From Verrucomicrobiota bacterium (GTDB taxonomy: Bacteria > Verrucomicrobiota > Verrucomicrobiia > Limisphaerales > UBA9464), in contig JARXAF010000123.1 of the NCBI GenBank assembly GCA_029865985.1, forward strand, positions 2,003 to 66,002: a stretch of DNA of 64,000 nucleotides. Direction: 5' to 3'. Both the position numbers and the translations under genes were made by a program. Below, piece after piece: positions 11,796 to 58,051 of this stretch (within the stretch, counting starts at the first letter, position 1; each line of letters starts with the position of its first letter). The notes beneath the pieces are model-generated. The model worked only from the letters and a program-made list of their open reading frames with translations. It had not been told where the DNA came from and searched no databases.

Positions 11796-12019
11796 TCCAT
11801 GAAGCTCCGGTGGGGAACCCAATTCCGTCAAGAATCAGGACTCGAAATTCCCGACTTGAACACCTGTCCCTAAAGGAAATCCCCCGTGGACCGGGGAAAT
11901 CCCTGGGTTCTGTTAATCGGACCGATCCGGAACTGCGACCCCTTGAATCCTTCGACCTCCGAGCAACCTCGCCGGAAGGAGATTCGAAGACTCCCGATCC
12001 GATCCCTACGACACTCATC

Positions 12020-34274: not shown

Positions 34275-37200
34275 TCAATGGTTCAGCACGAATTCAGGGG
34301 AGTTGAGGAGCGCCCAGAAGATATCCTCCACTGCAGTTTGTCGGGTGGCACCGGGCTGGGCGAATGCACGCAACGCCGCCTGACGCTCCGGCTCCGAAGG
34401 CAGGCGGTTGAGCAGAAGCAAGTACACCTCGCCCACCACTTCGGCTTCGCTGCGATCGCTGGCCGCCAGTTGGCGAACCCGCCCCTTGGGGTCTGCCAAT
34501 TTGGACTGCAAGACCTTCGAGTTCATCAGGTGCAGGCTTTGCACGACGCTCAATTGGGCATCGCGTTCACACGGACAATCGCTGCTGGAATTGGGGCGTC
34601 CAAAGGCGTCCAGGAAATGCGACGCGATCTTGTAGCTCCAGGTTTGCATGGCCCGACCACCGGGAGGCACCGCCGAAAAGATCTCCGGCACCCCGGTGGT
34701 ATCGGTCACTGCATCCACCAGCACCTCGGCGGGCAGTCGACGGCGGTAGGAACGGGAAAATTGTCGGGTGTCGCCTAGGTTGGTGGCGTTGGGCACCGAA
34801 CTCAGTTGGTAGGTCCGCGAAGCCATCACGGTTCGAAGCAGGTGTTTCAGGTCGTAGCCATGCGAGGCAAAATCCGCGGCCAGCGCCTCCAGCAGCGCCG
34901 GGTTCACACACGGATTGGAACTGCGAAAATCATCCACCGGATGAACCAGACCCCGTCCGAAGAAATGCCCCCACACCCGATTCACCGCCGCCTTGGCAAA
35001 AAAGGGATTCTCCGGAGCGGTCAGCCAATCGGCCAAATGCCGGCGTGGATCCCGAGATTCGTTCTTCGGGAGTTCCGGCCCCTCCGGTGGTCGAGGGGTC
35101 ATCGCCACTCCGCTCACCGGGTGCTTCACCTCGCCACCCGGTGCGAAAAAAAAGGTCTCCGTTCCTGCGGAGATCGGCGGAGACAAACCCGCCCCCTTCT
35201 GCTTCACCGGGCCGAAGTAGGCGGCCAGTTGGTAGAAATCATCCTGACTCCATTTTTCATTCGGATGGTGGTGACACTTGGCACACTCCAGTCGGGTACC
35301 CAGGAACAACTGGCTGAACTGAGTGGTCAGTTCCGGCGGATCCCGACGGTCACGATAAACCACGGCTGGACCCGCCCGATGGTTCGACCCTTCGGCCATG
35401 AGGATATCTCGAACAAACTGGTCATAAGGGCGATTGGCCCGGAACTGTTCGCGCAACCACTGATCGAGGAGGAACACGCTCTTCACCCCCACCCGATCGG
35501 GATTCGGCCTGAGAAGATCAGCCCACTGGTTGGCCCAATAATCGGCATAGGCCGGATGCTCCAGGATGGTGTCGATGAATCGCTGGCGCTTGTCCGGCGA
35601 AGGATCCGCCAAGAACGCACGCACCTCTTCCGGCGTGGGCAGGAGACCCACGGCATCCAGCTTGGCCCGCCGGAGGAATTCCGCATCGGTGCAGAGATCA
35701 GAGGGCATCAGTCCCAAACGCTGGAACTGCGCCAGAGCCAGGCCATCGATGAAATTGTGGGCAGGAATGGCTGAGTACGCCTTGGGTTTGAGCACCTTGT
35801 CGGCCGGCACCATGAGTGACGAGGCAGCCACCAATCCCATGTAGCGCGCTACGACCACGCCCTGCCCTGTCAGCTTGCCGATGGAAACCCGACCGGTCTC
35901 GTCCACGCGGGCCAACTCCTTGTCGCTCGAATCGTAGGCGGCCAAACGCGTGACATCGCGGACGCTCCCATCGGAATAGCGTGCCTCGACCTTCAGTCGC
36001 TGCTGCCCGCCCTTGCGATACCGCCCCTCGGCCGGAAACACCGCGACCGACTGGAGCACCGGCTCATTGGTCAGCGCATAGGGCATGCCTGCGCGAATCC
36101 AGCGGGTCAGCAATTGGTGGGTCGGGGATCCCGGCTGAAAACGCTGGCCTCCCTCATGCGGCACCCGTGTCAGGGCTTTGAGGAGAATCAGACTCTCTTC
36201 CGGAGCTGCCGGAAACACCCGCCGGCCGCGGGCATCCCGGACAATTTCAGCGTAGTCGCTGAGGGGGTCGTAGGAAAAAACGGACAGCTTGAAGCCGCTC
36301 TGGCCTTCCGGCTTGGAATGGCAACCGCCGGAGGCGCAGCCGGCCTGATTGAGCGCTGGCAACACATCGCGCACAAAACTCGGCGGCGGCACTTTTGCGG
36401 CCACTGTCTGCGGGGGCAGCGAAAGCTTCGCGGGCGTCGCCTCCAATACTGCACCCAACTCCCCCAAGACCTTGCCTTGCGCATCCCAGATCCGGACCAA
36501 CCCGTCCATGTCACCAGCGGCCACCCTCTGACCATCCGGCGTCACCGCCATGGTGAACACCACCGGCAGCAGTTGGGCCACCCGTCGATGCTCCGCGGTG
36601 GCCGAACTTTGTTCGCCCGTGTGCGACTTGAGCTGGGAATATCGGTCAATCGTCCCGCGATCAGTGGCCGCCCAAACCGAGGCACTGTCGCCCGGCCAAG
36701 CCACGGCCGTGATCGCCGCCATGGAATCACCCAGCGTGACGATCTTCTCGCGAGTGGCGATATCCCAGACCTTGAGCTGCCGGTCGGTGCCACCGCTGAC
36801 CACCTGAGTGGCGTTGGTGTTGAAAGCCGCGGCCATCACCTGGGAAGTGTGACCTTCCAGCACAGCGATCGGCGCTGCCTGGGCCACATCCCAGACCTTG
36901 ATGAGCGCGTCACCGCCGGCCGAGAGCAATCGGGAGCCATCCCGGCTGAACTCCAAATCAAAGATGGAGTCGGCATGCGCCTTCCAGGAACGCTGGATCC
37001 GACCATCCGCCACGCTCACCCACCGCAGATAACCGGGGAGACCAGAACCCCCGTCACCCAGAGCCAACTGCAAACCATCGGGAGAAAACTCCACACTCAG
37101 GACACGGCCAGAAAGACCATTCACGATCTCCCGCTCGACCGTGAGGGTCTCCGGGTTCCACAACCGCACCCGACGGAAGGATCCCGAAGCCAACCGGCGA

Positions 37201-37856
37201 CCATCCCGGCTCCAGGCGAGCGATTCCACCGGATCCATAGAAGCAACCGCCCGCGCCACGCGAGGAAACCCCGACTTCTGGAGGTCATGAATATCGATCC
37301 CACCCATGCGCGCCACCGCCAATCGATGTCCGGCCGGGTCGAGGGCCAGGGCGGCCACCGGCCGGAAGGAGGGAGCGGCTGACTCCAGCAACACCGGCCT
37401 TGGAACAGGCTCATCACTCAAGACACTGGCGTCCCAAGGAAGTCCGCGGCGAATCCAATCCCGGAGGGTCTTGATTTGGTCCGGCGTCAATTGCTTGCGG
37501 GGCGGCATGTGCGGTTCGGCTCCCAAAAGGACCGACGTCAGCAGTCGACTTTCCTTGGGCCGCCCCTCGAAAACCACCGGCCCCTCCTCGCTGCCCTTGA
37601 GCACCTGCTCCCGAGTCAGCAACGAAAGCCCTCCTTTTTGCTTGGTCTCGCCGTGGCACGAAAAGCACTCGTCGTGCAGCAGCGTCAGCGCACTCCGCGC
37701 CAGTGGATCACCAGGGCCTGCGGAACGAGGGGCCGCGGCCGACAGCAGCACCGAGGCCCAAAGGGCCCCGAACCAGAACCCGAATTGTCTTGGGATGCTG
37801 TGGATCACGGGAAAAAGGAGACCCTGAGATTGAAACCTCTCTTCCGCCAAAGGCAA
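34275..37856 (-). CDS. PSCyt1 - WD40 - PSCyt2/DUF1549 - DUF1553 multidomain protein with heme-c-like motifs
   Basis: The ORF has TTG at 37856. An alternative GTG at 37808 gives the signal-like IHSIPRQFGFWFGALWASVLLSAAA. CFSCHGETKQKGGLSL is the PSCyt1 motif. The WD40 region has repeats of the type LWNPE..., KVWDVAQ..., KVWDIAT... and RIWDAQG.... CASGGCHSKPEGQSGFKLS follows, then DUF1549, then CAKCHHHPNEKWSQDDFY and the family C-terminal end LLNSPEFVLNH. Confidence 0.85.
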   Translation of the reverse strand: MPLAEERFQSQGLLFPVIHSIPRQFGFWFGALWASVLLSAAAPRSAGPGDPLARSALTLLHDECFSCHGETKQKGGLSLLTREQVLKGSEEGPVVFEGRPKESRLLTSVLLGAEPHMPPRKQLTPDQIKTLRDWIRRGLPWDASVLSDEPVPRPVLLESAAPSFRPVAALALDPAGHRLAVARMGGIDIHDLQKSGFPRVARAVASMDPVESLAWSRDGRRLASGSFRRVRLWNPETLTVEREIVNGLSGRVLSVEFSPDGLQLALGDGGSGLPGYLRWVSVADGRIQRSWKAHADSIFDLEFSRDGSRLLSAGGDALIKVWDVAQAAPIAVLEGHTSQVMAAAFNTNATQVVSGGTDRQLKVWDIATREKIVTLGDSMAAITAVAWPGDSASVWAATDRGTIDRYSQLKSHTGEQSSATAEHRRVAQLLPVVFTMAVTPDGQRVAAGDMDGLVRIWDAQGKVLGELGAVLEATPAKLSLPPQTVAAKVPPPSFVRDVLPALNQAGCASGGCHSKPEGQSGFKLSVFSYDPLSDYAEIVRDARGRRVFPAAPEESLILLKALTRVPHEGGQRFQPGSPTHQLLTRWIRAGMPYALTNEPVLQSVAVFPAEGRYRKGGQQRLKVEARYSDGSVRDVTRLAAYDSSDKELARVDETGRVSIGKLTGQGVVVARYMGLVAASSLMVPADKVLKPKAYSAIPAHNFIDGLALAQFQRLGLMPSDLCTDAEFLRRAKLDAVGLLPTPEEVRAFLADPSPDKRQRFIDTILEHPAYADYWANQWADLLRPNPDRVGVKSVFLLDQWLREQFRANRPYDQFVRDILMAEGSNHRAGPAVVYRDRRDPPELTTQFSQLFLGTRLECAKCHHHPNEKWSQDDFYQLAAYFGPVKQKGAGLSPPISAGTETFFFAPGGEVKHPVSGVAMTPRPPEGPELPKNESRDPRRHLADWLTAPENPFFAKAAVNRVWGHFFGRGLVHPVDDFRSSNPCVNPALLEALAADFASHGYDLKHLLRTVMASRTYQLSSVPNATNLGDTRQFSRSYRRRLPAEVLVDAVTDTTGVPEIFSAVPPGGRAMQTWSYKIASHFLDAFGRPNSSSDCPCERDAQLSVVQSLHLMNSKVLQSKLADPKGRVRQLAASDRSEAEVVGEVYLLLLNRLPSEPERQAALRAFAQPGATRQTAVEDIFWALLNSPEFVLNH

Positions 37857-37909: not shown

Positions 37910-40900
37910 TCATCGGGCGGACGGGCTGGCCAAGACCTCGCGCTGCCCCGCCGTCACCGGCACCGTGGCCGATGAACCTCCGGGCCAATGAATCTCCACC
38001 GCATCGACCTTCTGGTCTCCGACGCCCAAGACCAGCACTGGGTCATCGCAGGACCCGTCGCCAGAACCCAGATGGATCTCCCGCCACGGACCGAAGCCCG
38101 AAGCCGATTTCCATCGAACCCGGGCGCCGACAGCCGTGGGATTGCCGCCTACTCCGGAAAGCCGAACCCGCAGCCCCGGACGCGCCGACACATTGCGCCA
38201 GAGGGTCGTCTCGGCGCCATTCTGGCCCACCGCCAAGTCCACCCGGCCGTCCGCATCGTAATCGCAAACCGCAGCCCCCCGGCCATCACCCTGTACGCGG
38301 ACGCCTGAGTTTTCTTCCGGCACAAAGCCACCCCGACCATCGCCGCGCAGCCACAATCCCCGCCCCGCATCGGAGCGTTCCGCAAAGGGATGTGCCGTGG
38401 ACAAGTTCTGCGAAAGAAACAAGTCGTCATGCCCGTCTCCGTCGAAATCGGCCACACAGAGCGAAGAAACCGGCGCGCGCTGCGCCACCGCCGGCAAGGG
38501 CTTCACCAGAAAGCGATCACCCCGATTGAGCAGCAGGACCGAATCCACCGTATCCACCGACACCGACCGGGCCGCCGACAACGCATCACCTAGGAGCATC
38601 GGCAAGGTGGCCTTGGAAAAAGCGACCAGGGATCCCACCCGTTCCCGTACCGCCGGATAGAGTGCGGCCCACAATCCCATTTCACGTTCCGGGCGATCCG
38701 CCTTGAGCGCGGGATCAAACCAACTCTCGGCCAGATCCAAGCCCTGACCGGAACCGAAATCGCCGTACCACAATCGGCGCGGCGCACTCCCCGAAGCGCT
38801 CCAGCGGGTGTTGCGACCCCAGTTGCCCAAGACCAAGTCCAATCGACCATCCTCATCGAAGTCACCCGCCACCACAGCATTCCAAAGCCCAGAGAACGAG
38901 CCGGAGGCCCCCTCGAGGACCGGCGCCCATTCCGTCAACCGACCCGATTCATTGCGGAAAAACCGGGGCGGAGCCCATTCCCGGGCCAGCACCAAATCAG
39001 GCCGAGCATCGCCATCGAGATCAGTGAAACACGCGGCCGTCACCAATCCCAGGTCGTCCCAACGGGTCACCGGTGTCAGGCGTCCGCCTTGATTGCGCAG
39101 CAACAACGAGGGGGCCGCCTCCGGATAACGACCCGCCACGGATCTCCCGCTGACAAACACCTCCAGAGATCCATCCCCGTCCACATCGGCCGCGGCCAGA
39201 GGACCGACGGCGAAGGCCGTGCCGACGAGCATTTCCCCGCTGCGTCCGCCGGCAGGGTCATACATGCGCAAGGCTCCGCCATTGGTCAGACCGTCCTCGT
39301 AATTCGAAATCCCCGCCAAGAGGACCCCATTGATGGGTAAAATCGAGGTCATGTCCCGACTGGTTGTCTTGTGGAAAGGCGGGGTTTCCCGAGCCTCGAA
39401 ACCGCCCTTCCCGTCCTGAATGCGAACCCCCGGCTTGCCGCCGCGACCGGAACCGATCACCAGATCGGGACGCCCATCCCCATTGAGATCCGTCCAGGTC
39501 AGGCTGGGCCCGAGTTGAGACAACCGATGGGGCATGGCTGGCTGGCGACCGAAATCATCGAAGGGCTCGTCCTCGTGCCGATGAGCCAAGCGCGCAGTCT
39601 GGTCCTCAAACCAGCGGACGGGCGGCTTTGACAAAGCAACGGTTGCGACGGCAGGCGCCTCGACTTCCGACACCTCCACCGCAGAACCAGCCGGCACCTC
39701 CCGCCATTCCGAGATCCGGCCCGAGGGCCATCGAACGCGCAACCCAACCGAAGCTGCGCGACCCGTGGCAAAGGATCGCACCGGCTCATCGCCGCTGAGG
39801 TAGCGCCCGCCGGCGATGATTTCCTGAGTCTGGTCCGGCAAGCCCGCGGCGCGAACCGTCACCGATGCGCCGATACCCCGGGTGTTGGAGTCCTTGCCTC
39901 GGAGGCCTACGAGGATCCGCGGAGCGCTCGCGTTGTTCCGATAAAACGCCGGCGCATCCATGAGGTCGTTCATCACGACGTCCAAATCACCGTCCCCGTC
40001 GAGATCGCCAATAGCGGCCCCTTGCGACATGGAATCCACGGTGAAGCCCCAAGCTTGGGAAACTTCTTCAAAAGTGGCATCCCCACGGTTGCGGAAGGCC
40101 ACGTTGGGTGTCGACAACTTGGGGAAGGATTTGACCATTTCGGTGATCTCCGCCGGAGACTTCAGGGCCCCGCGCCTCTGGGCCTCGGCGATGCGCCGCG
40201 CGCCGTCGCCATCCTGGAAATCGCGCCACTGTCCATTGGGGACGAGCAGGTCCTCGAACCCATCCAAGTCGATGTCCAGGATCACCGGCCCCCAGGACCA
40301 TTCGCTGGCTTCCACCCCAGCCTGCCAGGCGACATCCGCCCAGGTACCATCGCCGCGGTTGAGTTGCAGGACGTTCCGCTGGACCTGGGCCCGATCCGCA
40401 AACCGTCCGGGCTGGCGCATCACCGGGGACATGCCCGCCGTCTGAGTCTGCCGCCAGGATCGGTTGCGACTGAACATGTCCACGGCGAAGAAATCGACAT
40501 GGCCATTGCGATCGAGATCGCCGAAGTCGATGCCCATGGAAAACGTGGGATTGCTCCTCAAGGCCATCACCGACAGTTCGCGAAAACGCAGGCGATGATC
40601 CGGACCTGTCTCGTTGATCCAGATGCGGTCCGGGGTGTGCAAGTCGTTGCAGACATACAAGTCCGGTTTCCCATCGCCCGTCATATCTTGGAAGCGAGCA
40701 GCCAAGCCCCAGTCCCGCGGAGGGGCCAACAAGGCTTTGCCGGCCGAGTCCAAAAAGGTGCCGTCGGTCCACGAGGCCCGCACAAAACGACCCCGCCCCT
40801 CGTTCAGGAACATCGAGTCGACTTCACCCATTTCGACCACCTCACCGCCTGAATGGATCTCGAATCGGTTCGTGAGGTCCGGCGCGGTGGCCGGCCGTCC

Positions 40901-41623
40901 ATTGACAGCCACAACCACCGTCCCCGCATCGGTCTGTCGGAGTTGGTACCGGGTGTTCGGTTGATCAAGGACGGTGGTCGGGCGGAAGTGCGCCACGTAG
41001 AGGTCCAGGTCACCATCGCCATCCACGTCGGCCAAGGCCATCGAAGTCGCCCCACTGCGCGAACGTAACCCGGCCGCATCAGTGGTCTCCTGAAAACGAC
41101 CCGAACCCTCATTGAGCCAAAGGCGGGTGCCGCCGCCCAACTGATTGACCAACAAGTCGGAGTCTCCGTCCCCATCCACATCGGCAAAAGCCGCTCCGGT
41201 CGAATCGTTGGATCCTGAAGACGGGGTGAGCCAATTCACACCCGGCAAAGCTTGGGCCGTCACATTGGTGAAGCGCCAATTCCCCAAGTTGCGGTACAGG
41301 GCGTTGGTTGAATCCAACCCGCAGAAGAAGACATCGAGACGTCCATCGCCATCCACATCGGCCAGCGCCACTCCCGAACCGGAGACGAGATTGCGGTTGG
41401 TGACCGCCCGTTCTTCGGAGAGTCGGTTGGTGAAATCAATCCCCAGATCCGGAGCCGACAATCGGGTCAGACCGGGTGCGGACGGAGATACCGAGGGCAA
41501 GGTCTGGATCCGAAGACCTGTCTGGGCCGCTCGCAATCCCGGCATCGAAACCAAGGACATGACCAACACAGCGAACAACCTCTGGAGGTTCGCTAAAATC
41601 ATCGAGCGATGCGGATTCATCAT
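37910..41623 (-). CDS. FG-GAP/VCBS repeat + UnbV_ASPIC protein (CRTAC1-like), double module
   Basis: There are many DVDGDGxxDL FG-GAP calcium loops. Two UnbV/ASPIC-like blocks are present (RGIGASVTVRAAGLPDQTQEIIAGGRYLSGDEP...VRWPSG and NPTAVGARVRWKSASG...HLGSGDGSCDDP...IHWPGG). The start MMNPHR overlaps the upstream stop (ATGA). Confidence 0.85.
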   Translation of the reverse strand: MMNPHRSMILANLQRLFAVLVMSLVSMPGLRAAQTGLRIQTLPSVSPSAPGLTRLSAPDLGIDFTNRLSEERAVTNRNLVSGSGVALADVDGDGRLDVFFCGLDSTNALYRNLGNWRFTNVTAQALPGVNWLTPSSGSNDSTGAAFADVDGDGDSDLLVNQLGGGTRLWLNEGSGRFQETTDAAGLRSRSGATSMALADVDGDGDLDLYVAHFRPTTVLDQPNTRYQLRQTDAGTVVVAVNGRPATAPDLTNRFEIHSGGEVVEMGEVDSMFLNEGRGRFVRASWTDGTFLDSAGKALLAPPRDWGLAARFQDMTGDGKPDLYVCNDLHTPDRIWINETGPDHRLRFRELSVMALRSNPTFSMGIDFGDLDRNGHVDFFAVDMFSRNRSWRQTQTAGMSPVMRQPGRFADRAQVQRNVLQLNRGDGTWADVAWQAGVEASEWSWGPVILDIDLDGFEDLLVPNGQWRDFQDGDGARRIAEAQRRGALKSPAEITEMVKSFPKLSTPNVAFRNRGDATFEEVSQAWGFTVDSMSQGAAIGDLDGDGDLDVVMNDLMDAPAFYRNNASAPRILVGLRGKDSNTRGIGASVTVRAAGLPDQTQEIIAGGRYLSGDEPVRSFATGRAASVGLRVRWPSGRISEWREVPAGSAVEVSEVEAPAVATVALSKPPVRWFEDQTARLAHRHEDEPFDDFGRQPAMPHRLSQLGPSLTWTDLNGDGRPDLVIGSGRGGKPGVRIQDGKGGFEARETPPFHKTTSRDMTSILPINGVLLAGISNYEDGLTNGGALRMYDPAGGRSGEMLVGTAFAVGPLAAADVDGDGSLEVFVSGRSVAGRYPEAAPSLLLRNQGGRLTPVTRWDDLGLVTAACFTDLDGDARPDLVLAREWAPPRFFRNESGRLTEWAPVLEGASGSFSGLWNAVVAGDFDEDGRLDLVLGNWGRNTRWSASGSAPRRLWYGDFGSGQGLDLAESWFDPALKADRPEREMGLWAALYPAVRERVGSLVAFSKATLPMLLGDALSAARSVSVDTVDSVLLLNRGDRFLVKPLPAVAQRAPVSSLCVADFDGDGHDDLFLSQNLSTAHPFAERSDAGRGLWLRGDGRGGFVPEENSGVRVQGDGRGAAVCDYDADGRVDLAVGQNGAETTLWRNVSARPGLRVRLSGVGGNPTAVGARVRWKSASGFGPWREIHLGSGDGSCDDPVLVLGVGDQKVDAVEIHWPGGSSATVPVTAGQREVLASPSAR

Positions 41624-44600
41624 GGCTTCAACGTGATCTCAGCCACCCCGGCCGCGACCGGCACGCGTCGCACCGCGCCACCGGGCCAGCGCACCTCGAC
41701 CTCACCGGCCGCCCGATCCGAGGCGAGGATGGTCACCGGGCTGTCCACACTGCAGTAGCCTCCGCCCATCCGAATTTCACGACGCCCCCACGCCTTGCCG
41801 CCGGCCCACCATCGTAGGGATGTGCCGATCCCGGTCGGATTCCCGGGAGGCCCCTTGAGCCGAACCCGAAGACCCGGGCGCGCGGCGCGGTTGCGGAAGA
41901 GCAGCGTCGGTCCGCTGTTCTGACTCAAAGCCAAATCGGTGCGCCCATCGGCATCCAAGTCCGCCAAGGCCACACCGCGTTGCTCACCCCAGGCCACGAT
42001 GCCCGAGTGCTCGTCGGCCCGGAAGTCACCGCGCCCCGTTCCTCTCAGGAGCAATCCCCGCCCCGCGTCATAGCGGGCGTCATCTGAATGCACACCGAAG
42101 TGGTTTTGAGATAGGAACAAGTCCTCGGTTCCGTCGCCATCGAGATCAGACACCGCCAACCCATAGGCCGGCGCCAACTGGGCCCGCAGCGGCAACGGTC
42201 GCCATTCCAAATGGTCTCCCCGATTCAGGAAAACTCCCGAATCCAGATTGAGCGCTGACACGCTGGGCAATGGGCCCAGAAGCGGACCCAAGAGTTCCTC
42301 CATGGAAGACTTACCGAAGGTCCCCGCATCCGGGAAACGCTTCGCCACATCCGGGATGAAGGCCGCCAGTGCGGGCCGTTTGCGGACAGGCCAATCCCGC
42401 CCATCAGGCCCGATATAGCTCTCCAGAAGATCCCAGATACCATCGTCGAGCAGGTCCCCGGAACGGATCCGCAACGGTCGCCGGCGGGCATCGGCTCCCA
42501 GGAAGTGGTTCCGACCCCAGTTCCCCGCGGCCAAGTCCATGCGTCCGTCGCCATCAAAATCACCCGCTGTGATGCCCAACCAAAGACCCGTCCACTGGGA
42601 GAGGCGCTCAACACCGGCCGGCAATCCGGTGCCACGCAGTGGCGGATCCCAAGCCTCCAGAGCGCCCCCTCGATTGCGAAACAAGCGAACCGCCCCCCAG
42701 GCCGTGCTCACCACCAAATCAGGCCGCGCATCGTCATCCAGGTCGGTGAAAACCACGCCATTGACCAGACCCAGTTTTTCAAAAGCGTTCTGAATCCCCA
42801 AACGTCCGCCGCGGTTCTTCAACAAAAACGACGTCGCCGGCTCCGGATAACGCCCTGGCACTTCCCGAACACCAACAAACACTTCCAACTCGCCGTCTCC
42901 ATCCACATCGGCCGCCGCCATGGAACCCACCGGGCAGGCTCGACCGCTCAGGATTTCACCGCTCGCTCCGGACGCCAGGTCCACGATCCGGATCGCGCCG
43001 CCATTGGTGACCCCGTCCTCACCATTGCTGATGCCCGTCAGGATTACCCCACGCAACACCATCACGGTGGTCAGATCCCGAGGGGCGGGCTTGAGCAACG
43101 CTGGATTGGAAAAGGCCGAGAAGCCTCCATGGGAGTCGTTGGTGAACACCCCGAGCGTTCCACCCTGACCGGCGGAAATGAGGAGATCATCCCACCCATC
43201 CCCGTTGAGGTCGGCCCAGGTGACGCCCGGTCCGGTCTGGCTGAGATCGAAGGGTTTTAACGGCTGGCGTCCAAATTCATCAAATGGGGTATCGGTGTGG
43301 ACATGCGCCAAGCGGTCCGAAATCGACTCGAACAGCGGCGTTACCGGCGGTGGCGCAATGACAGCAACCGTCTCCTGCTCTGCAATCTCCACAACACCGG
43401 GGCCAACACCGGTGCGTCGGGTCACCCGTCCACTGCGCCAAGTCACCTCGATGTCCGCCGTTGTCGCCGTACCCAACGCAAAGCACCGAATCGCGTCATC
43501 CCCCGACAAGTAGCGACCGCCAGACATCATTTCTTGGGACTGCACCGGGAGCCCTTGAGCCACCACCCGGATCTTGGCTCCGATGCCCCGGGAATTCCCG
43601 GCAACTCCCCGCAATCGAACAGCCACCCTCGGTGCCGTGGTCCGATTGCGGTAGAGCTTCGGTGGGTCATTCAAGGCGTTCAGCACCAGGTCCATATCCC
43701 CATCGCCATCCAGATCGGCCGCGGCCATGCCTTGCTCGACCCCCGGCGCATCGAAGCCCCAGGCTTGAGTCACCTCTTCAAAGGTCAAATCCCCGCGATT
43801 GCGGAAGGCGGCATTGGGCGTATCGAGCCGGGCGAACATCCGACGCATGTCCAGGATTTCGAGGAAACCCATTTTTCGGCTCGATTTCATCGCCTCAGCG
43901 CGGGCCCCGACATCCACATCGAACATGTCCATCTCGTTGCCGTTGGAGATAAGGAGATCCTCGTACCCGTCCAAATCGACATCCAGGAATAGCGGCGTCC
44001 ACGACCAATCACTGGCACTGACCCCGGCCAAACGGCCGATCTCGGCGAAGGTTCCATCCCCACGCCCGAGAAACAGGGTATTGTGAGAAAACTGGGGCCG
44101 ATCGTCCCAGATTCCGGGCTGATAAAACCCGGGCGGCACCCCGTCCATCTGAACATTCCGCCGCTGATGATCGCGACTGAGCATGTCCAGCACCACAAAG
44201 TCATCCACGCCGTCGCGATCGATGTCGGCAGCGTCCACCCCCATCGAGAAGGCGCTGGTCTGCCGCAAGGCCAATTGGGGAGCCGCCCGAAATAGCAAGG
44301 GGCCACCGGGAGCCGTTTCATTGACCCAGAATCGGTCTTCCGACTGAAAGTCATTGCAGACGTACAAGTCCGGCCGCCCATCGCCGGTGAGATCCCGAAA
44401 CAGAACGCTCAATCCCCAATCTTGCGGTGCCGAGTCGAGCGGACGACCCGCGGTGTTCAGGAAAGCCCCACGCGTCCAAGGCACCTCCGTGAAAATCCCT
44501 TTGCCATCATTGAGGTATAAGGCATCCACCTCGCCGTTTTCACGAGGGCCCATCGGAGTCATGGTGAACCTCCCCACCAAATCGGGCTCCTCAGTCGAAC

Positions 44601-45261
44601 GGCCATTGTAGGCTACAATCCGCTGGCGCCCATTTTCCTCGCGCAGTGAATACTTGGCCTTGGGATCATCACGCACCGTCACCGTGCGGTAGTTGGCGAC
44701 GTACAAATCCAAATCTCCGTCCGCATCCACGTCGGCCAATGAAAGACTCGATCCCGCTCGGTTGGGATTGAGGACAACACCCGGTGTGAAATGCCCTTTA
44801 CCATCGTTGTGATAAATCCGGGTTCCTTGAGCGAGTGTGTTGAGCAAGAGATCCAGATCCCCATCGCCATCAATATCTGCCAGGACGACACCGGTTCCAT
44901 CGAGCGATGATAGGGCGGTTGTTCCAAAGGCTGCCTCTGTCATAGAGGCGAACCTCATCTGCCCCAGATTGCGGAACAATGCACTCCCGCCCGAATAAGC
45001 CGCCAAAAAGAGGTCAGGGCGACCATCTCCGTCCACATCACCCAAGGCCACACCGGAGCCATTGAGCGGAATTTGGTTGGTGAGATAACGTGAAGGCGGG
45101 ACCGAATTGGTGAACACCAGTCCAGTCAGGTCGGCCTTGAGCAATTCGAAGCCCACCGAGGCATCTCCCAGAACGACCCGGTTGGTCAGAAAACCAATCA
45201 GCAGCAGCAAGATGCAATGGAACCTGCGGGGTGACACGCCGCCAGCATTGCGGCTTCCCAT
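41620..45261 (-). CDS. FG-GAP/VCBS repeat + UnbV_ASPIC protein (CRTAC1-like), double module, paralog of 37910-41623
   Basis: It has the same architecture and is colinear with its neighbour. Examples are SRGIGAKIRVVAQGLPVQSQEMMSGGRYLSGDDA...VTWRSG and NPTGIGTSLRWWAGGKAWGRREIRMGGGYCSVDSP...VRWPGG. The N-terminal hydrophobic signal is FHCILLLLIGFL. Confidence 0.85.
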   Translation of the reverse strand: MGSRNAGGVSPRRFHCILLLLIGFLTNRVVLGDASVGFELLKADLTGLVFTNSVPPSRYLTNQIPLNGSGVALGDVDGDGRPDLFLAAYSGGSALFRNLGQMRFASMTEAAFGTTALSSLDGTGVVLADIDGDGDLDLLLNTLAQGTRIYHNDGKGHFTPGVVLNPNRAGSSLSLADVDADGDLDLYVANYRTVTVRDDPKAKYSLREENGRQRIVAYNGRSTEEPDLVGRFTMTPMGPRENGEVDALYLNDGKGIFTEVPWTRGAFLNTAGRPLDSAPQDWGLSVLFRDLTGDGRPDLYVCNDFQSEDRFWVNETAPGGPLLFRAAPQLALRQTSAFSMGVDAADIDRDGVDDFVVLDMLSRDHQRRNVQMDGVPPGFYQPGIWDDRPQFSHNTLFLGRGDGTFAEIGRLAGVSASDWSWTPLFLDVDLDGYEDLLISNGNEMDMFDVDVGARAEAMKSSRKMGFLEILDMRRMFARLDTPNAAFRNRGDLTFEEVTQAWGFDAPGVEQGMAAADLDGDGDMDLVLNALNDPPKLYRNRTTAPRVAVRLRGVAGNSRGIGAKIRVVAQGLPVQSQEMMSGGRYLSGDDAIRCFALGTATTADIEVTWRSGRVTRRTGVGPGVVEIAEQETVAVIAPPPVTPLFESISDRLAHVHTDTPFDEFGRQPLKPFDLSQTGPGVTWADLNGDGWDDLLISAGQGGTLGVFTNDSHGGFSAFSNPALLKPAPRDLTTVMVLRGVILTGISNGEDGVTNGGAIRIVDLASGASGEILSGRACPVGSMAAADVDGDGELEVFVGVREVPGRYPEPATSFLLKNRGGRLGIQNAFEKLGLVNGVVFTDLDDDARPDLVVSTAWGAVRLFRNRGGALEAWDPPLRGTGLPAGVERLSQWTGLWLGITAGDFDGDGRMDLAAGNWGRNHFLGADARRRPLRIRSGDLLDDGIWDLLESYIGPDGRDWPVRKRPALAAFIPDVAKRFPDAGTFGKSSMEELLGPLLGPLPSVSALNLDSGVFLNRGDHLEWRPLPLRAQLAPAYGLAVSDLDGDGTEDLFLSQNHFGVHSDDARYDAGRGLLLRGTGRGDFRADEHSGIVAWGEQRGVALADLDADGRTDLALSQNSGPTLLFRNRAARPGLRVRLKGPPGNPTGIGTSLRWWAGGKAWGRREIRMGGGYCSVDSPVTILASDRAAGEVEVRWPGGAVRRVPVAAGVAEITLKP

Positions 45262-45417: not shown

Positions 45418-46818
45418 TCAGCGCGTGAGCTGCTTCTCGAGGTAACCCACGTCTTGACGCACCTTGGCCTCCACTTCCATCCGATCCCGCACCTGGCGGC
45501 AGGCATGCAAGACAGTGCCATGGTCACGCCCGCCAAAGGATTCACCGATCGCACTGAGCGAGTGCTCGGTGAGTTGACGGGTGAGGTACATGGCGATTTG
45601 CCGCGGGAAAGCGATGTTCTCGGGCCGCCGCTTGCTCGTCATGTCAGCCAGACGGATGTCGAAGTAATCGGCGACCCGCTTCTGAATCTCGCTCACTGAG
45701 ATGGCAACCTTGCCTTCTTCCTGGAGGATTTCCCGAAGCAGGGTCTCGACTGTTTCCAGATCAAGCGCCTTACCGGAAAGCTGTGCATAAGCCGCGACAC
45801 GCACCAAGGCACCCTCCAATCGACGGATATTGGTCCGGATGCGATGGGCCAAGAACGTGATGATCGGATCCGGCAACTTCACGCTGAGCGCCGCCGCCTT
45901 CTTGTTCAGGATGGCCAACCGAGTCTCGACGTCCGGGGCCTTGAGGTCGGCAGTCATTCCCCACTCGAAGCGGGAAATCAACCGCTGCTCCAAGCCCTGA
46001 ATCTCGTTAGCCGGCCGGTCGCAGGTCAGGACGATCTGCTTGTGAGCATCATGGAGAGCATTGAAGGTGTGAAAAAACTCCTCCTGGATGCGCTCTTTGC
46101 CCTGAAGGAACTGGATGTCATCGATCAACAGCACATCGAGTTCGCGGTGCTTCTTGCGAAACTTGGGCAACTGGCTGTTCTGCAGCGCTTCAATGAACTC
46201 GTTGGTGAACCGCTCGCAAGACAAGTAGCCGATACGGGCGTTCTTCTTGTTGGCCAGAACATGATGACCGATGGCTTGCAGTAGGTGTGTTTTACCCAAG
46301 CCCACGCCACCGAAGAGAAACAGCGGATTGTAAGTATGCCCCGGCTTCTGCGCCACCCCCATGCAGGCTGCGTGGGCATGATGGTTGTTGGAACCCACCA
46401 CAAAGGTCTCGAAACTGTTGTTCGGATTGAACAAAGGCTCCGACTTGCGAGGCAACTCCTTCACCAGCGGTTCGACGGCACGAACTTCAACCGGAGCAAC
46501 GCGTTCTGAAGCCGCTTCGGTAACCACCGGACGATCGGAGGCCGAATCAGCCGCAGCAACGGAATCTGCCGGGCGGATGGCAAAGGCCACTTGAATCGGA
46601 CGGATGGCCGCACGGCTGACAACCGATCGAAGGACATCCAGATAATTGTCCTTCAGCCAAAACTCACAAAATTCATCAGCCACCTCCAAAGTCAGAGTGT
46701 CTCCGTCCAGGCAGCGGGCCGTCACCGGGGCAAACCACAGGTTATACAACTCCGTTTTAAGCATTCCACGGAGGGTTTGCTGGGCGGCCAGCCACAGTGC
46801 TTGGGGTTGATCGGACAT
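45418..46818 (-). CDS. dnaA: chromosomal replication initiator protein DnaA
   Basis: YNPLFLFGGVGLGKTHLLQAIG is the Walker A motif. LLIDDIQFLQGKERIQEEFFHTFN, the VLTCDRPANEIQGLEQRLISRFEWG sensor region, and the C-terminal DNA-binding helix AFPRQIAMYLTRQLTEHSLSAIGESFGGRDHGTVLHA are also present. Confidence 0.95.
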   Translation of the reverse strand: MSDQPQALWLAAQQTLRGMLKTELYNLWFAPVTARCLDGDTLTLEVADEFCEFWLKDNYLDVLRSVVSRAAIRPIQVAFAIRPADSVAAADSASDRPVVTEAASERVAPVEVRAVEPLVKELPRKSEPLFNPNNSFETFVVGSNNHHAHAACMGVAQKPGHTYNPLFLFGGVGLGKTHLLQAIGHHVLANKKNARIGYLSCERFTNEFIEALQNSQLPKFRKKHRELDVLLIDDIQFLQGKERIQEEFFHTFNALHDAHKQIVLTCDRPANEIQGLEQRLISRFEWGMTADLKAPDVETRLAILNKKAAALSVKLPDPIITFLAHRIRTNIRRLEGALVRVAAYAQLSGKALDLETVETLLREILQEEGKVAISVSEIQKRVADYFDIRLADMTSKRRPENIAFPRQIAMYLTRQLTEHSLSAIGESFGGRDHGTVLHACRQVRDRMEVEAKVRQDVGYLEKQLTR

Positions 46819-47216
46819 GAGATATTTAATGGGGGCCTAAAATGGACAAGGTTCCGATTTATTCACTATCACCGTTTACAGAGCGATCGAGTCTTCCTGC
46901 AATTGTGACAGTTTCATGAAGCTTCCCGAACAGTCCATCGTGATCAAACCCGCGCCAGCACTCGCTGTGAACATATAAAACAGTTGAAAACACTGGGATT
47001 TCAACACATTTGCGAGCGCCTGGTGGAACATGATTGAGTGCGATTTCTTCTCGAGCTTGCCGTGATTCTTTCCACGGCGGGCGAGGCTTCTATGGCAAAG
47101 CAACGAGTACCGCGAGAACAAGTTTTTGGGTGTTGTTCCCAAGTTGTTCACAACCTGCAAAACGGCCCCAAATCCGGCGGATTTGACAAGCAAAACCGCC
47201 GGATTGGGCGACCCAT
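46819..47216. promoter_or_regulatory. dnaA upstream region with DnaA-box-like 8/9-mers (candidate dnaA promoter/autoregulatory region, possibly oriC)
   Basis: This is the locally most AT-rich stretch. TGTGAACAT at 46966-46974 (reverse complement ATGTTCACA), GGTGGAACA at 47022-47030 (reverse complement TGTTCCACC) and TTGTTCACA at 47144-47152 each differ from TTATCCACA at about 3 positions. A 10-bp inverted repeat AATCCGGCGG / CCGCCGGATT lies at 47171-47205. Confidence 0.3.
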
Positions 47217-47621
47217 TTACTTCTTGGCAGCAGCGGCCTTCTTCGCCGGGGCAGCCACCTTGGCAGGAGCAGCCTTCTTGGCCGGAGCCGCAGGCTTAGC
47301 AGGAGCAGCCTTCTTGGCCGGGGCAGCAGCCTTGGCAGGAGCAGCCTTCTTAGCCGGGGCAGCAGCCTTGGCAGGAGCAGCCTTCTTAGCCGGGGCAGCA
47401 GCCTTGGCAGGAGCAGCCTTCTTAGCCGGAGCCGCTGCCTTGGCAGGAGCAGCCTTCTTGGCCGGAGCTGCAGCCTTGGCAGGAGCAGCCTTCTTGGCCG
47501 GGGCCTTGGCAGCAGCCAGGGCGCAGGTCCGGACGAGACGGGATTCGGAGTTGGTTTCGGTTGGTTTCACTCTGAGTTTGTTGTTGTTGTGTTGTAGGTC
47601 TGACTCACCGCACCCATTCAA
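47217..47621 (-). CDS. histone H1/Hc2-like lysine/alanine-repeat DNA-binding protein
   Basis: The C-terminal ~95 aa are pure (KKAAPAKAAAPA)n ending AAAKK. The frame contains no ATG. Candidate starts are TTG at 47621 (ORF track) or GTG at 47570. The composition matches bacterial H1-like / chlamydial Hc2-type nucleoid proteins. Confidence 0.7.
   Translation of the reverse strand: MNGCGESDLQHNNNKLRVKPTETNSESRLVRTCALAAAKAPAKKAAPAKAAAPAKKAAPAKAAAPAKKAAPAKAAAPAKKAAPAKAAAPAKKAAPAKAAAPAKKAAPAKPAAPAKKAAPAKVAAPAKKAAAAKK
47257..47508. repeat. 36-bp tandem repeat, about 7 copies, coding for the KA repeat
   Basis: The unit is GCCTTGGCAGGAGCAGCCTTCTTAGCCGGGGCAGCA. Copies at 47329-47364 and 47365-47400 are identical, and flanking copies differ by a few substitutions. 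Confidence 0.9.
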
Positions 47622-47939
47622 TCCTCAGTTAAGAGGACCCAATGATTCGATGCTTCAGAAATTCAAGAAAGGGGGTGCGGCGATTCTGCAATATTTGAGC
47701 GAAGGCATTAAAAACCCGCGCTATCCGAGGACGAATCCAGAGCCGTCCAATCCGAGAAAAGGCGTCGGTTGGCCGGGGGGACGATGGTTGAATCGCTAGA
47801 ACCGGATATGGATTCATGAAGTCTCCGACCGGGGAACTCTGTCTGAGATAATGCCCCGAGGCGGGTCTTGACAACCGGATTTCACCAAATCACACGATTT
47901 CTTTCCGAAATTGGCACTCAGTGACATCCTGCAAGCACG

Positions 47940-49112
47940 GTGCGTGAGCGTTGGCAAAAAATGACGGAGGCTGCAGAGACTTACCTCTTGGCAGTCATTC
48001 TAGAGAATCTTCCTGGCCGCAAGGCCTCGTTGATTCGAGCCCTGCTGTCGATGTTGTCTCAAGTATTTGCGGTCATCGTGAAGCTGCGACGATTGCTCTA
48101 CAGCGTGCGTATCTTGCGCGATTCCACTCTCGGTGTTCAGGTGATCGCTGTGGGCAACCTCACGGTGGGCGGCACCGGAAAGACTCCCGTCGTTGAAAAA
48201 TTCGCGCGCGCGCTCCAGGACGCTGGACGCAAGGTGGCCATCCTTTCTCGCGGATACCGATCGAAACCCAAACCCGTCTCTGAACGACTCCTCGACAAGA
48301 TCTTGCTGCGCGAAGACACCACACCGCCGCGAATCGTCTCCGACGGCCACTCACTGCTGCTCGACTCCGAGACGGCAGGTGACGAGCCCTACATGCTGGC
48401 ATCCAACCTCCGGGATGTGGTGGTGCTGGTCGACAAAGACCGAGTGAAGGCCGGGCGTTATGCCGTGGAACATTTCGGCTGCGACACCCTGCTGCTGGAT
48501 GACGGCTTCCAGTACTGGAAATTGGCCGGACGCCGCACCGACGTGGTCCTCATCGACTGCCAACAACCCTTTGGCAACGAGCACCTGCTGCCGCGCGGAA
48601 CACTGCGAGAGCCCCCCTCCCACCTGGCCCGGGCCAGCGTCATCTTCTTGACCAAGAGCGATGGCAAGACGGCCGCGTTGCGGAACCGGATCGCCCAACT
48701 CAATCCACGAGCCGGTATTATCGAATGTGTCCATCACCCGCTGTACTTCGAGGATGTCTTCACCGGGGAACGGCGTGGCCTCGACCTCTTGCAGGGCCGC
48801 AGGGTGGCCAGCCTCAGCGGGATCGCCCAACCCGAGAGCTTCGAATCCAAGCTCTCGGAGCTGGGGGCCGACATCGTGTTGGCCCGCCGCTATGCCGACC
48901 ACCATCGGTTCACCCAACAAGAGGTGCTGGATGCCGTGAACCGCGGCAAGAAACGCAGGGCGGACATGCTGGTCACTACGCAGAAGGATGCCGTCCGTTT
49001 CCCTAAGCTCGACCGGCGCGACCTACCCATCTACTTCATGCGCGTGGAAATCAAGATCATCGCCGGAGCCCAAGGCTTCGACGACGCCGTGAGCCGAATT
49101 TGTTTCCGGTAG
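47940..49112 (+). CDS. lpxK: tetraacyldisaccharide 4'-kinase LpxK
   Basis: VIAVGNLTVGGTGKTPVVEKFARAL is the LpxK P-loop, and LLDDGFQ and HH motifs are present. The ORF starts on GTG at 47940, with an alternative ATG at 47961 (MTEAAETY...). Confidence 0.85.
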   Translation: MRERWQKMTEAAETYLLAVILENLPGRKASLIRALLSMLSQVFAVIVKLRRLLYSVRILRDSTLGVQVIAVGNLTVGGTGKTPVVEKFARALQDAGRKVAILSRGYRSKPKPVSERLLDKILLREDTTPPRIVSDGHSLLLDSETAGDEPYMLASNLRDVVVLVDKDRVKAGRYAVEHFGCDTLLLDDGFQYWKLAGRRTDVVLIDCQQPFGNEHLLPRGTLREPPSHLARASVIFLTKSDGKTAALRNRIAQLNPRAGIIECVHHPLYFEDVFTGERRGLDLLQGRRVASLSGIAQPESFESKLSELGADIVLARRYADHHRFTQQEVLDAVNRGKKRRADMLVTTQKDAVRFPKLDRRDLPIYFMRVEIKIIAGAQGFDDAVSRICFR

Positions 49113-57442: not shown

Positions 57443-58051
57443 TTACACGCGGCGCTTCTTACGGGGACGGCAGCCATTGTGCGGGACCGGGGTCACGTCT
57501 TTGATCACGGTGATCTCGAGACCGATGGCCTGGAGAGCACGGATGGCCGACTCACGGCCGGAACCCGGACCATTGACCCGAACTTCGACCTCGCGCATGC
57601 CGTGCGACATCGCCTGACGAGCAGCGTCCTGAGCGGCCTGCTGAGCAGCAAAGGCAGTGCTCTTACGGGAACCCTTGAATCCAACCCGACCCGCTGTGCT
57701 CCAACCGATCAGGTTGCCCTGCATGTCGGTGATGGTCACCTGAGTGTTGTTGAAAGTCGCCATGACGTGCGCCACGCCCAACGCGATGTTCTTCGCACCC
57801 TTGGCGCGAATGATTTTCTTCGCATTAGGATCATCACCGAGCAGGTCGGCGGCAGTCGGAGCAGCCGCGGCTGCCAACGGTGCCGGAGCGGCCGATGCAG
57901 CGGGTGCTGCCGTCGCAGCTCCCTGGCCGTCTGCAGCAGCCTTCTTGCTCTTCGGAGCAGCCTTGGTGGTGGCCTTTTCTGCGGTTACCTCTGCGGTAGC
58001 CTCACCGGCCTCGGCCTTGGGGGCCTTCTTGGCCTTTGTCTCTTCTGCCAT
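57443..58051 (-). CDS. rpsK: 30S ribosomal protein S11 with ~70-aa Ala/Lys-rich N-terminal extension
   Basis: The core [30 protein letters not shown]...[12 protein letters not shown]...[17 protein letters not shown] is S11. At 202 aa it compares with about 130 aa in typical bacteria. No in-frame ATG/GTG/TTG lies between 58051 and the conserved core. Confidence 0.9.

Follow-up and report, generated by a model that had tools for sequence, protein, structure and literature searches.

A small lysine-, alanine- and proline-rich repeat protein encoded upstream of dnaA in an uncultured Verrucomicrobiota clade

The window, by which we mean the whole 64,000-nucleotide stretch of Verrucomicrobiota DNA analysed here, carries upstream of dnaA, and on the same strand, a short gene made mostly of tandem repeats. 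We hold with high confidence that this ORF is a real gene, read in the lysine/alanine frame from a GTG start, and we lean towards the view that its product is a small free-standing polycation that binds a polyanion, most likely DNA, with a role in the nucleoid included. Judged by its sequence, the protein belongs most naturally with the K/A/P-repeat polycations, as a member of that class that is independent and restricted to its lineage. The gene, its parts and its neighbor are as follows:

47217 to 47570, minus strand: coding sequence of the Lys/Ala/Pro-repeat protein, from the GTG start at 47570 to the TAA stop at 47219-47217, 117 aa
47505 to 47570, minus strand: unique N-terminal segment (M)KPTETNSESRLVRTCALAAAK, 22 residues, with the sole predicted helix
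47223 to 47504, minus strand: 36-bp tandem array encoding (APAKKAAPAKAA)n, from Tandem Repeats Finder and the unit table
45418 to 46818, minus strand: dnaA (Pfam DnaA_N, Bac_DnaA and Bac_DnaA_C), the downstream gene, apparently on the same transcript

The window protein (117 aa, 11.0 kDa) has a pI of 11.05 and a net charge of about +26.5. Alanine (49%), lysine (23%) and proline (15%) together account for 86% of its residues, and arginine for two of the 117. The repeats, which the first-pass annotation had put at about 70 percent of the ORF, in fact make up about 80% of the protein, and in this tail of APAKKAAPAKAA repeats there is about one lysine per four residues. AlphaFold2, run on the single sequence, returned a mean pLDDT of 60.6, with one helix at residues 7-21 (block pLDDT about 76) and coil across all repeats from residue 22 to 117, without a fold; the protein is accordingly predicted to be an unfolded polycation. 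Neither Pfam nor NCBIfam has a family that matches it at threshold. The Pfam scan listed no Hc1, HC2 or linker-histone domain even at E<=10, where the only match was Plasmodium_HRP, sub-threshold with 10 bits where the cut-off is 45.8.

A single array came out of Tandem Repeats Finder, of period 36 and 7.8 copies, with 91% matches, 0 indels and a score of 445, which bears out the original description of a 36-bp tandem repeat coding for a Lys/Ala protein. Read in the coding register it consists of eight 12-codon units, of which units 4 (47396-47361) and 5 (47360-47325) are identical and unit 3 lies 1 nt away from both; these same two units, taken in a shifted register, are the identical copies at first placed at 47329-47400. 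Exact direct repeats reach 77 nt, at an offset of 36, so that 113 nt, from 47317 to 47429, are perfectly periodic.

The minus-strand ORF from 47217 to 47621 exists and, as had been noticed, holds no in-frame ATG. This absence had been thought unusual; a conserved GTG takes the place of the ATG, and the extent to 47621 has to be given up for the conserved ORF that runs from the GTG at 47570 to the TAA at 47217. Both GTG and TAA are kept, with the frame open throughout, in 58/58 orthologous copies, counting complete copies (a further one, L123, is cut by a contig end and was left out). The 58 copies comprise 42 distinct coding alleles of 14 lengths, between 69 and 141 aa, all of them multiples of 3 nt. 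Frame-breaking indels are restricted to just outside the GTG and the TAA: in the alignment of the lpxK-dnaA spacer, a 1-nt indel falls 22 nt upstream of the GTG, between it and the TTG at 47621, and a 2-nt indel directly follows the TAA in the clade that we call SELRF after its N-terminus. We rejected the TTG as start codon on account of that 1-nt indel and of the stretch upstream of the leader, about 220 nt of which are unalignable in the SELRF clade. With the start at GTG 47570, the window product is therefore 117 aa long.

47571 to 47593, minus strand: C/A-rich leader AACACAACAACAACAAACTCAGA, directly upstream of the GTG and without a Shine-Dalgarno sequence

The leader is nearly invariant in all clades, with the three bases just before the GTG variable, and the start region is unstructured, folding no more than shuffled sequence does (z = +0.41). 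The starts that we trust in the window, those of dnaA and of the 6PGD gene, likewise have no Shine-Dalgarno sequence. A 16-codon upstream ORF (ATG 47617, preceded by GAGGA) that would be coupled to the GTG through a GTGA overlap was considered and dropped, its ATG being ACG in L009 and L010.

The clade to which all this applies is narrow. The exact DnaA protein of the window is present on many environmental metagenome contigs. Among named genomes its nearest counterparts are in Verrucomicrobiota MAGs, the best of them a Limisphaerales MAG with 67% DnaA identity, in agreement with the membership in the PVC superphylum assumed at the outset. A word-index protein search yielded two true orthologs of the repeat protein, P0001 and P0002, which have the same arrangement of lpxK, repeat gene and dnaA and have the non-repeat motif HNNNKL.VKPTE.N.E.RL.RTCALAAAKAP in common; 47 further orthologous metagenome loci were reached with a degenerate DNA pattern for TCALAAAKAP. 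A protein-pattern scan of metagenomes with the 32-aa N-terminus confirmed nothing. A full HMMER scan of 1.84 billion representatives gave 157 matches at E<=0.001, in which the ortholog cluster and a truncated member are alone in aligning over the N-terminus, the others aligning from about residue 20, that is, over the repeat alone. By this sequence measure, full-length relatives are confined to a narrow Verrucomicrobiota clade. The flanks of 30 other Verrucomicrobiota dnaA loci, taken up to 4 kb where the contig allows, contain no repeat gene, lpxK or FG-GAP gene (the positive control, DnaA, was found in 30/30), and we discarded on these grounds the idea that the lpxK-gene-dnaA arrangement is conserved across other Verrucomicrobiota. 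The exact window protein is absent from the protein collection, both in its 134-aa, TTG-start form and in its 117-aa, GTG-start form; the collections mostly hold an antisense shadow ORF or upstream-extended versions of the real ORF.

Within the lineage of the window we found alleles of 69, 81, 93, 105, 111 and 117 aa, and the number of repeats differs between assemblies of near-identical strains. The first-pass annotation had foreseen that the gene would be prone to copy-number variation, and this range of lengths supports it, with the caveat that part of the differences may be short-read collapse of the 113-nt perfectly periodic stretch. Copy number changes in frame because near-identical 36-bp units slip or recombine unequally; such events would generate alleles that differ in length and charge.

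The Lys/Ala/Pro polycation of the H1-tail type announced by the first-pass annotation holds, and the relatedness to chlamydial Hc1 and Hc2 that went with it finds no support, as there is no profile match. Like the repeat protein, chlamydial Hc2 (HctB) is small, very basic, composed mostly of Lys/Ala-rich tandem repeats and devoid of a globular domain; it binds DNA and ranges from 165 to 237 aa through gain or loss of 36-aa elements (PMC2848022). In both proteins the number of repeats varies between strains, in ours from 69 to 141 aa. However, the Hc2 unit is 36 aa long and built of pentamers, whereas ours is 12 aa long (36 bp), richer in proline and almost free of arginine; the repeat protein has no match to Pfam HC2 at E<=10, it has a conserved N-terminus of its own that HMMER finds in one Verrucomicrobiota clade only, and it has no link to a developmental cycle. 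Chlamydial Hc1 (HctA) is no closer, as Pfam Hc1 does not match the protein at E<=10 either. Since there is no profile match, the N-terminus belongs to this clade only and 30 dnaA loci elsewhere in the phylum lack the gene in the flanks covered, the likeness to Hc2 is one of composition and architecture, and not of PVC ancestry.

Other polycations resemble it in other respects. The KPAA domain of AlgP and PhaF from Pseudomonas has the same K/P/A tandem repeats, predicted disorder, high positive charge and H1-tail composition; KPAA peptides bind DNA, and the repeat region of AlgP is a mutational hot spot (PMC9239181). In these proteins, the tail extends from a folded domain at the N-terminus (a helical one of 124 aa in AlgP, a phasin in PhaF; PMC9239181), whereas in ours it is preceded by about 22 unique residues in which no domain was found, and their repeat is a 4-mer, ours a 12-mer with a KK pair. 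The PAKKA motif of actinobacterial tails, as in Ku of M. smegmatis and in mycobacterial HU, recurs literally in each unit here (APAKKAAPAK), and PAKKA repeats modulate DNA binding by Ku (PMC3553676). Yet those tails are appended to a folded DNA-binding domain, while the repeat protein stands alone, and the phyla are unrelated. With the C-terminal domain of eukaryotic H1 the protein shares Lys/Ala/Pro richness, disorder, a length of about 100 aa and charge density; unlike H1/H5, it has no winged-helix globular domain according to Pfam and AlphaFold2, and its tail is a regular tandem repeat.

The order of genes at the locus is lpxK, the Lys/Ala/Pro-repeat gene and dnaA, with lpxK (47940-49112) on the other side of the repeat gene and transcribed in the opposite direction. 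From the stop of the repeat gene to the start of dnaA there are 398 nt, on the same strand. The position beside dnaA, which had been singled out from the beginning, is thus confirmed; it is specific to the clade, and it seems to reflect co-transcription. The elements that bear on this are:

47848 to 47874, minus strand: promoter-like block, with TTGTCA at 47874-47869, a 15-nt spacer and CATTAT at 47853-47848
47816 to 47830, minus strand: cluster of contig 5' ends, the probable approximate 5' end of the transcript
47157 to 47220, minus strand: stem-loop that begins at the stop codon, core stem AATCCGGCGG/CCGCCGGATT at 47205-47171, T4 run at 47162-47159
46819 to 47156, minus strand: conserved spacer between the stem-loop and the dnaA start, part of the putative shared transcript

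Only two blocks upstream of the gene are conserved across all clades: the leader with its GTG, and TGAAATCCGGTTGTCAAGA...CGGGGCATTAT, about 280-310 nt upstream of the GTG. The latter, which we call promoter-like, is kept even in the clade whose 5' UTR is unalignable. It was missed by the consensus promoter scanner because the scanner needs a spacer of 16-18 nt and the block has one of 15; its -10 element is weak, and it could serve lpxK instead, since a perfect TTGACA of the lpxK strand overlaps it. The first bases of twelve whole contigs, which come from different samples and represent three clades, fall 246-260 nt upstream of the GTG and 22-32 nt after the -10-like CATTAT; the clade with unrelated local sequence is among the three. 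Seven of the 12 extend across the repeat gene, its stem-loop and the 398-401-nt spacer and take in the whole of dnaA, to end 2-406 nt past the dnaA stop. Such clustering of ends has a probability of about 2e-15 if ends are spread evenly over 3 kb, and, rank for rank, contigs are much shorter in these data sets than in sister data sets, as expected of transcript assemblies. These assemblies are apparently unstranded, and the only guides to the strand of the transcript are where the promoter-like block lies and which way dnaA is read. Taken together, the conservation and the contig ends make it likely that one transcript, starting at the conserved block, covers both the repeat gene and dnaA. This apparent operon is the one mildly unusual feature of the gene, and it is confined to this clade.

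Between the two genes, the stem-loop has a minimum free energy of -35.4 kcal/mol (z = -4.24), and both its stem AATCCGGCGG/CCGCCGGATT and its loop TTTTGCTTGTCAAA hardly change over 16 distinct downstream sequences. The loop measures 15 nt between the arms of the core stem, and is reduced to 5 nt in the MFE fold, where a short inner helix forms as well; the U-run that follows is only 3-5 nt long and stands 3-4 nt past the stem. The terminator scanner passed the stem-loop over, and the transcript-like contigs continue across it into dnaA. It does not look like a canonical terminator, and may instead act as a partial one, stabilise the RNA, or be an inverted repeat bound by a protein at the DNA level. 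The whole spacer from stop to start (46819-47216) equals coding sequence in conservation, with 83% identity between the window and L009 where dnaA has 82.7% and lpxK 84.7%, and its length is 398-401 nt in all orthologs.

How would such a protein act? Transcription would start some 300 nt ahead of the GTG, from the conserved promoter-like block, and give a variable 5' UTR of about 260 nt ending in the conserved, unstructured C/A-rich leader, which would spare the GTG the need of a Shine-Dalgarno sequence for initiation. Some at least of the transcription would pass the stem-loop and the 398-nt spacer into dnaA, so that the repeat protein would be made together with the replication initiator. 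The evenly spaced lysines of its tail would then bind a polyanion without sequence specificity, chromosomal DNA being the likeliest partner. Charge would thereby be neutralised and the nucleoid bridged or compacted, as happens with the H1 tail, Hc2, the KPAA domain of AlgP/PhaF and the PAKKA tails. Compaction of DNA by the repeat protein is, on this analogy, a reasonable inference. Judging by composition, we consider it somewhat better than an even chance that the protein binds mainly to DNA or the nucleoid and not to some other polyanion.

The strongest alternative keeps the same protein and changes the partner: it would coat or organise polyphosphate granules, ribosomes or RNA. The chemistry of a polycation would bind RNA, ribosomes or polyphosphate too, and AlgP, which among the K/P/A-repeat proteins that have been studied comes closest, is located at polyphosphate granules and sets their spacing (PMC9239181). 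The company that the tail keeps elsewhere can be read in both directions. Among the 36 non-orthologous word-index matches, 25 bear a similar tail on a domain that binds nucleic acid, the ribosome or RNA polymerase: SWIB in nine, ribosomal L21 in nine, HU in three, and S1, ribbon-helix-helix, RsfS and DksA in one each. These matches by composition include many tails on ribosome-associated proteins (the nine of L21, plus S1 and RsfS), and S11 of the same genome bears a basic extension; however, fusions to HU, SWIB and ribbon-helix-helix are as common as the ribosomal ones, and co-transcription with dnaA leans slightly to a role related to the chromosome. We regard a non-chromosomal main partner as possible and the less likely of the two, roughly one chance among several. 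As an observation in its own right, the extension of ribosomal protein S11 in the window is N-terminal, about 75 aa long and rich in K, A and E.

A more specific proposal would make the repeat protein a replication-linked chromatin factor that acts at the origin or close to it, for instance by condensing or opening origin DNA or titrating DnaA, and not a general coat of the nucleoid. The stem-loop would then set the ratio of repeat protein to DnaA and, if this were true, repeat-number alleles would tune the timing of initiation in natural populations. We think it improbable. A replication origin at the locus was looked for and set aside, as the GC skew keeps its sign there and there are only two DnaA-box-like sites, each with one mismatch.

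A further reading has the array untranslated, either as repetitive sequence within a long leader RNA of dnaA or as a DNA element near the origin, such as iterons. The array does lie inside the apparent dnaA transcript, the stem-loop and spacer that flank it are conserved as sequence, and tandem repeats beside dnaA could suggest a replication origin. Against this, the DnaA-box-like sites are unclustered and the GC skew shows no switch of sign at the locus, and no Rfam family matches at threshold (a known RNA family was discarded, the Rfam matches being at chance level, E = 0.33 and 0.52). A repeat that is non-coding and varies in frame among strains, which the first-pass annotation had named as what would tell against a gene, was looked for, and the 42 alleles vary by multiples of 3 nt only, whereas adjacent non-coding DNA has indels of 1, 2 and 4 nt. 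The N-terminus, moreover, is under purifying selection on its protein sequence: pN/pS in the Lys/Ala frame is 0.25-0.43 between clades, and RTCALAAAKAP is invariant as protein, with DNA variation that is synonymous only. We consider an untranslated array very unlikely, and return to the repeat gene as a coding sequence to ask which of its strands is read.

47038 to 47799, plus strand: antisense shadow ORF with (AAFLAG)-type repeats, in a non-conserved frame and without a Pfam match

Annotation pipelines conflict on this point: JGI records give the Lys/Ala strand, and ENA records often give an antisense ORF of 199-223 aa, as they do in L004-L006 and L008, whose product forms a 49-member cluster in public collections labelled 'hypothetical protein'. 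The plus-strand ORF is open over 253 codons in the window, and a conserved GAGG/GGAGG stands before its ATG at 47092. That it stays open over the repeat is nonetheless automatic. The antisense frame shares its wobble positions with the Lys/Ala frame, AAG/GCN/CCN becoming TTN/GCN/GGN, and since these are never stop codons, an open antisense frame over the repeat is uninformative; the integrity of the ORF was for that reason abandoned as a strand test. Read from its conserved ATG, the antisense ORF is thrown out of frame with the repeat by the 2-nt indel of the SELRF clade, and it meets a stop codon after 42 aa in L127 and 92 aa in L099. From clade to clade its C-terminus shifts by about 70 aa, and in its N-terminal flank the differences from L009 are about equal at all three codon positions. 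The Shine-Dalgarno-like sequence weighs little where trusted genes dispense with one. Synonymous codon choice in the window favours the Lys/Ala frame (+5.3 bits, against -31.1 for the antisense frame), as it does in 12/15 alleles; the antisense frame is favoured in the other three (L009, L094 and L095), and we take codon usage as supportive evidence only because of them. We also tried to argue for high expression from Ala and Pro codons that end in T and gave it up, as the ribosomal genes S11 and S13 do not clearly show this preference and the orthologs use other wobble bases. That the plus-strand ORF is the real gene, as several pipelines have it, thus appears largely refuted by sequence comparison, and we leave it the slightest of chances.

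The biology of the Lys/Ala/Pro-repeat protein, as we read it, is expected rather than surprising. With this gene, an uncultured Verrucomicrobiota clade, known here from environmental metagenome contigs alone, joins the scattered bacterial lineages with independently evolved polycations that resemble the H1 tail, and it does so with a protein that is close to the minimal form, some 22 unique residues followed by repeats. Public annotation can be corrected at the same time, with the GTG-start ORF replacing the antisense shadow ORF and the upstream-extended forms. The apparent co-transcription with dnaA, together with an allele series that runs from 69 to 141 aa, would make this clade a convenient natural system in which to relate the length of such a tail to its binding to the nucleoid or to other polyanions.

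The locus of the Lys/Ala/Pro-repeat protein is systematically mis-annotated, because the mirror frame of Lys/Ala/Pro repeats is stop-free. The form mostly present in public protein collections is the antisense shadow ORF (47038-47799, plus strand), the frame that we judged not to be a gene, which appears there as a 49-member cluster whose sole name is 'hypothetical protein'. The real Lys/Ala/Pro ORF carries spurious upstream extensions in these collections, as in the orthologous proteins P0001 and P0002 (213-221 aa).

The flanks of the gene, from its stop codon to dnaA and from its start towards lpxK, contain the following elements:

47890-47915, minus strand: small palindromic block ATTTCGGAAAGAAAT, between the promoter-like block and the lpxK start
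47157-47220, minus strand: stem-loop beginning at the stop codon, loop TTTTGCTTGTCAAA
46819-47156, minus strand: spacer from the stem-loop to dnaA
47138-47116, minus strand: inverted repeat GAACAA-N11-TTGTTC, within the spacer
46966 and 47145: two TGTTCACA sites in opposite orientations, within the spacer

In the stem-loop, the loop is invariant to the same degree as the stem, and it has the motif ATCCGG...TTGTCAA in common with the promoter-like block (47869-47880). For both reasons the constraint looks like one on the sequence itself and not on RNA structure alone, and the element is perhaps a protein-binding site. The spacer that follows is as conserved as the adjacent coding sequences. Of the 105-aa ORF called there by JGI (46876-47193), the orthologous locus L009 keeps a stop-free stretch of just 64 codons; this ORF is probably spurious.

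Upstream of the gene, the palindromic block is mostly kept in all clades and its central TTCGGAAAG core is invariant; it could serve as a regulatory site, either of lpxK or of the divergent transcript. Two further short contigs (L124 and L136) start 79-80 nt upstream of the GTG, at about 47649-47650; their shared start may be due to chance, or it may mark either a processing site or a second 5' end.

Downstream, the neighbours of dnaA are FG-GAP/UnbV_ASPIC repeat genes, two large ones being called in the fetched loci, and not dnaN. Three long ORFs of the window look like a putative tandem set of such genes:

34275-37856, minus strand: long ORF
37910-41623, minus strand: long ORF
41620-45261, minus strand: long ORF

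The window also contains, at 11789-21619 (plus strand), one very long ORF (3276 aa). GC skew is negative throughout the 64 kb window, with no switch of sign at dnaA, and the replication origin is probably elsewhere than at the dnaA locus.

One other gene of the window deserves mention:

57443-58051, minus strand: ribosomal protein S11, 202 aa

Its product has an N-terminal extension of about 75 aa that is low-complexity and rich in K, A, E, T and P, and therefore in this lineage a basic, Ala-rich extension is also attached to a ribosomal protein.
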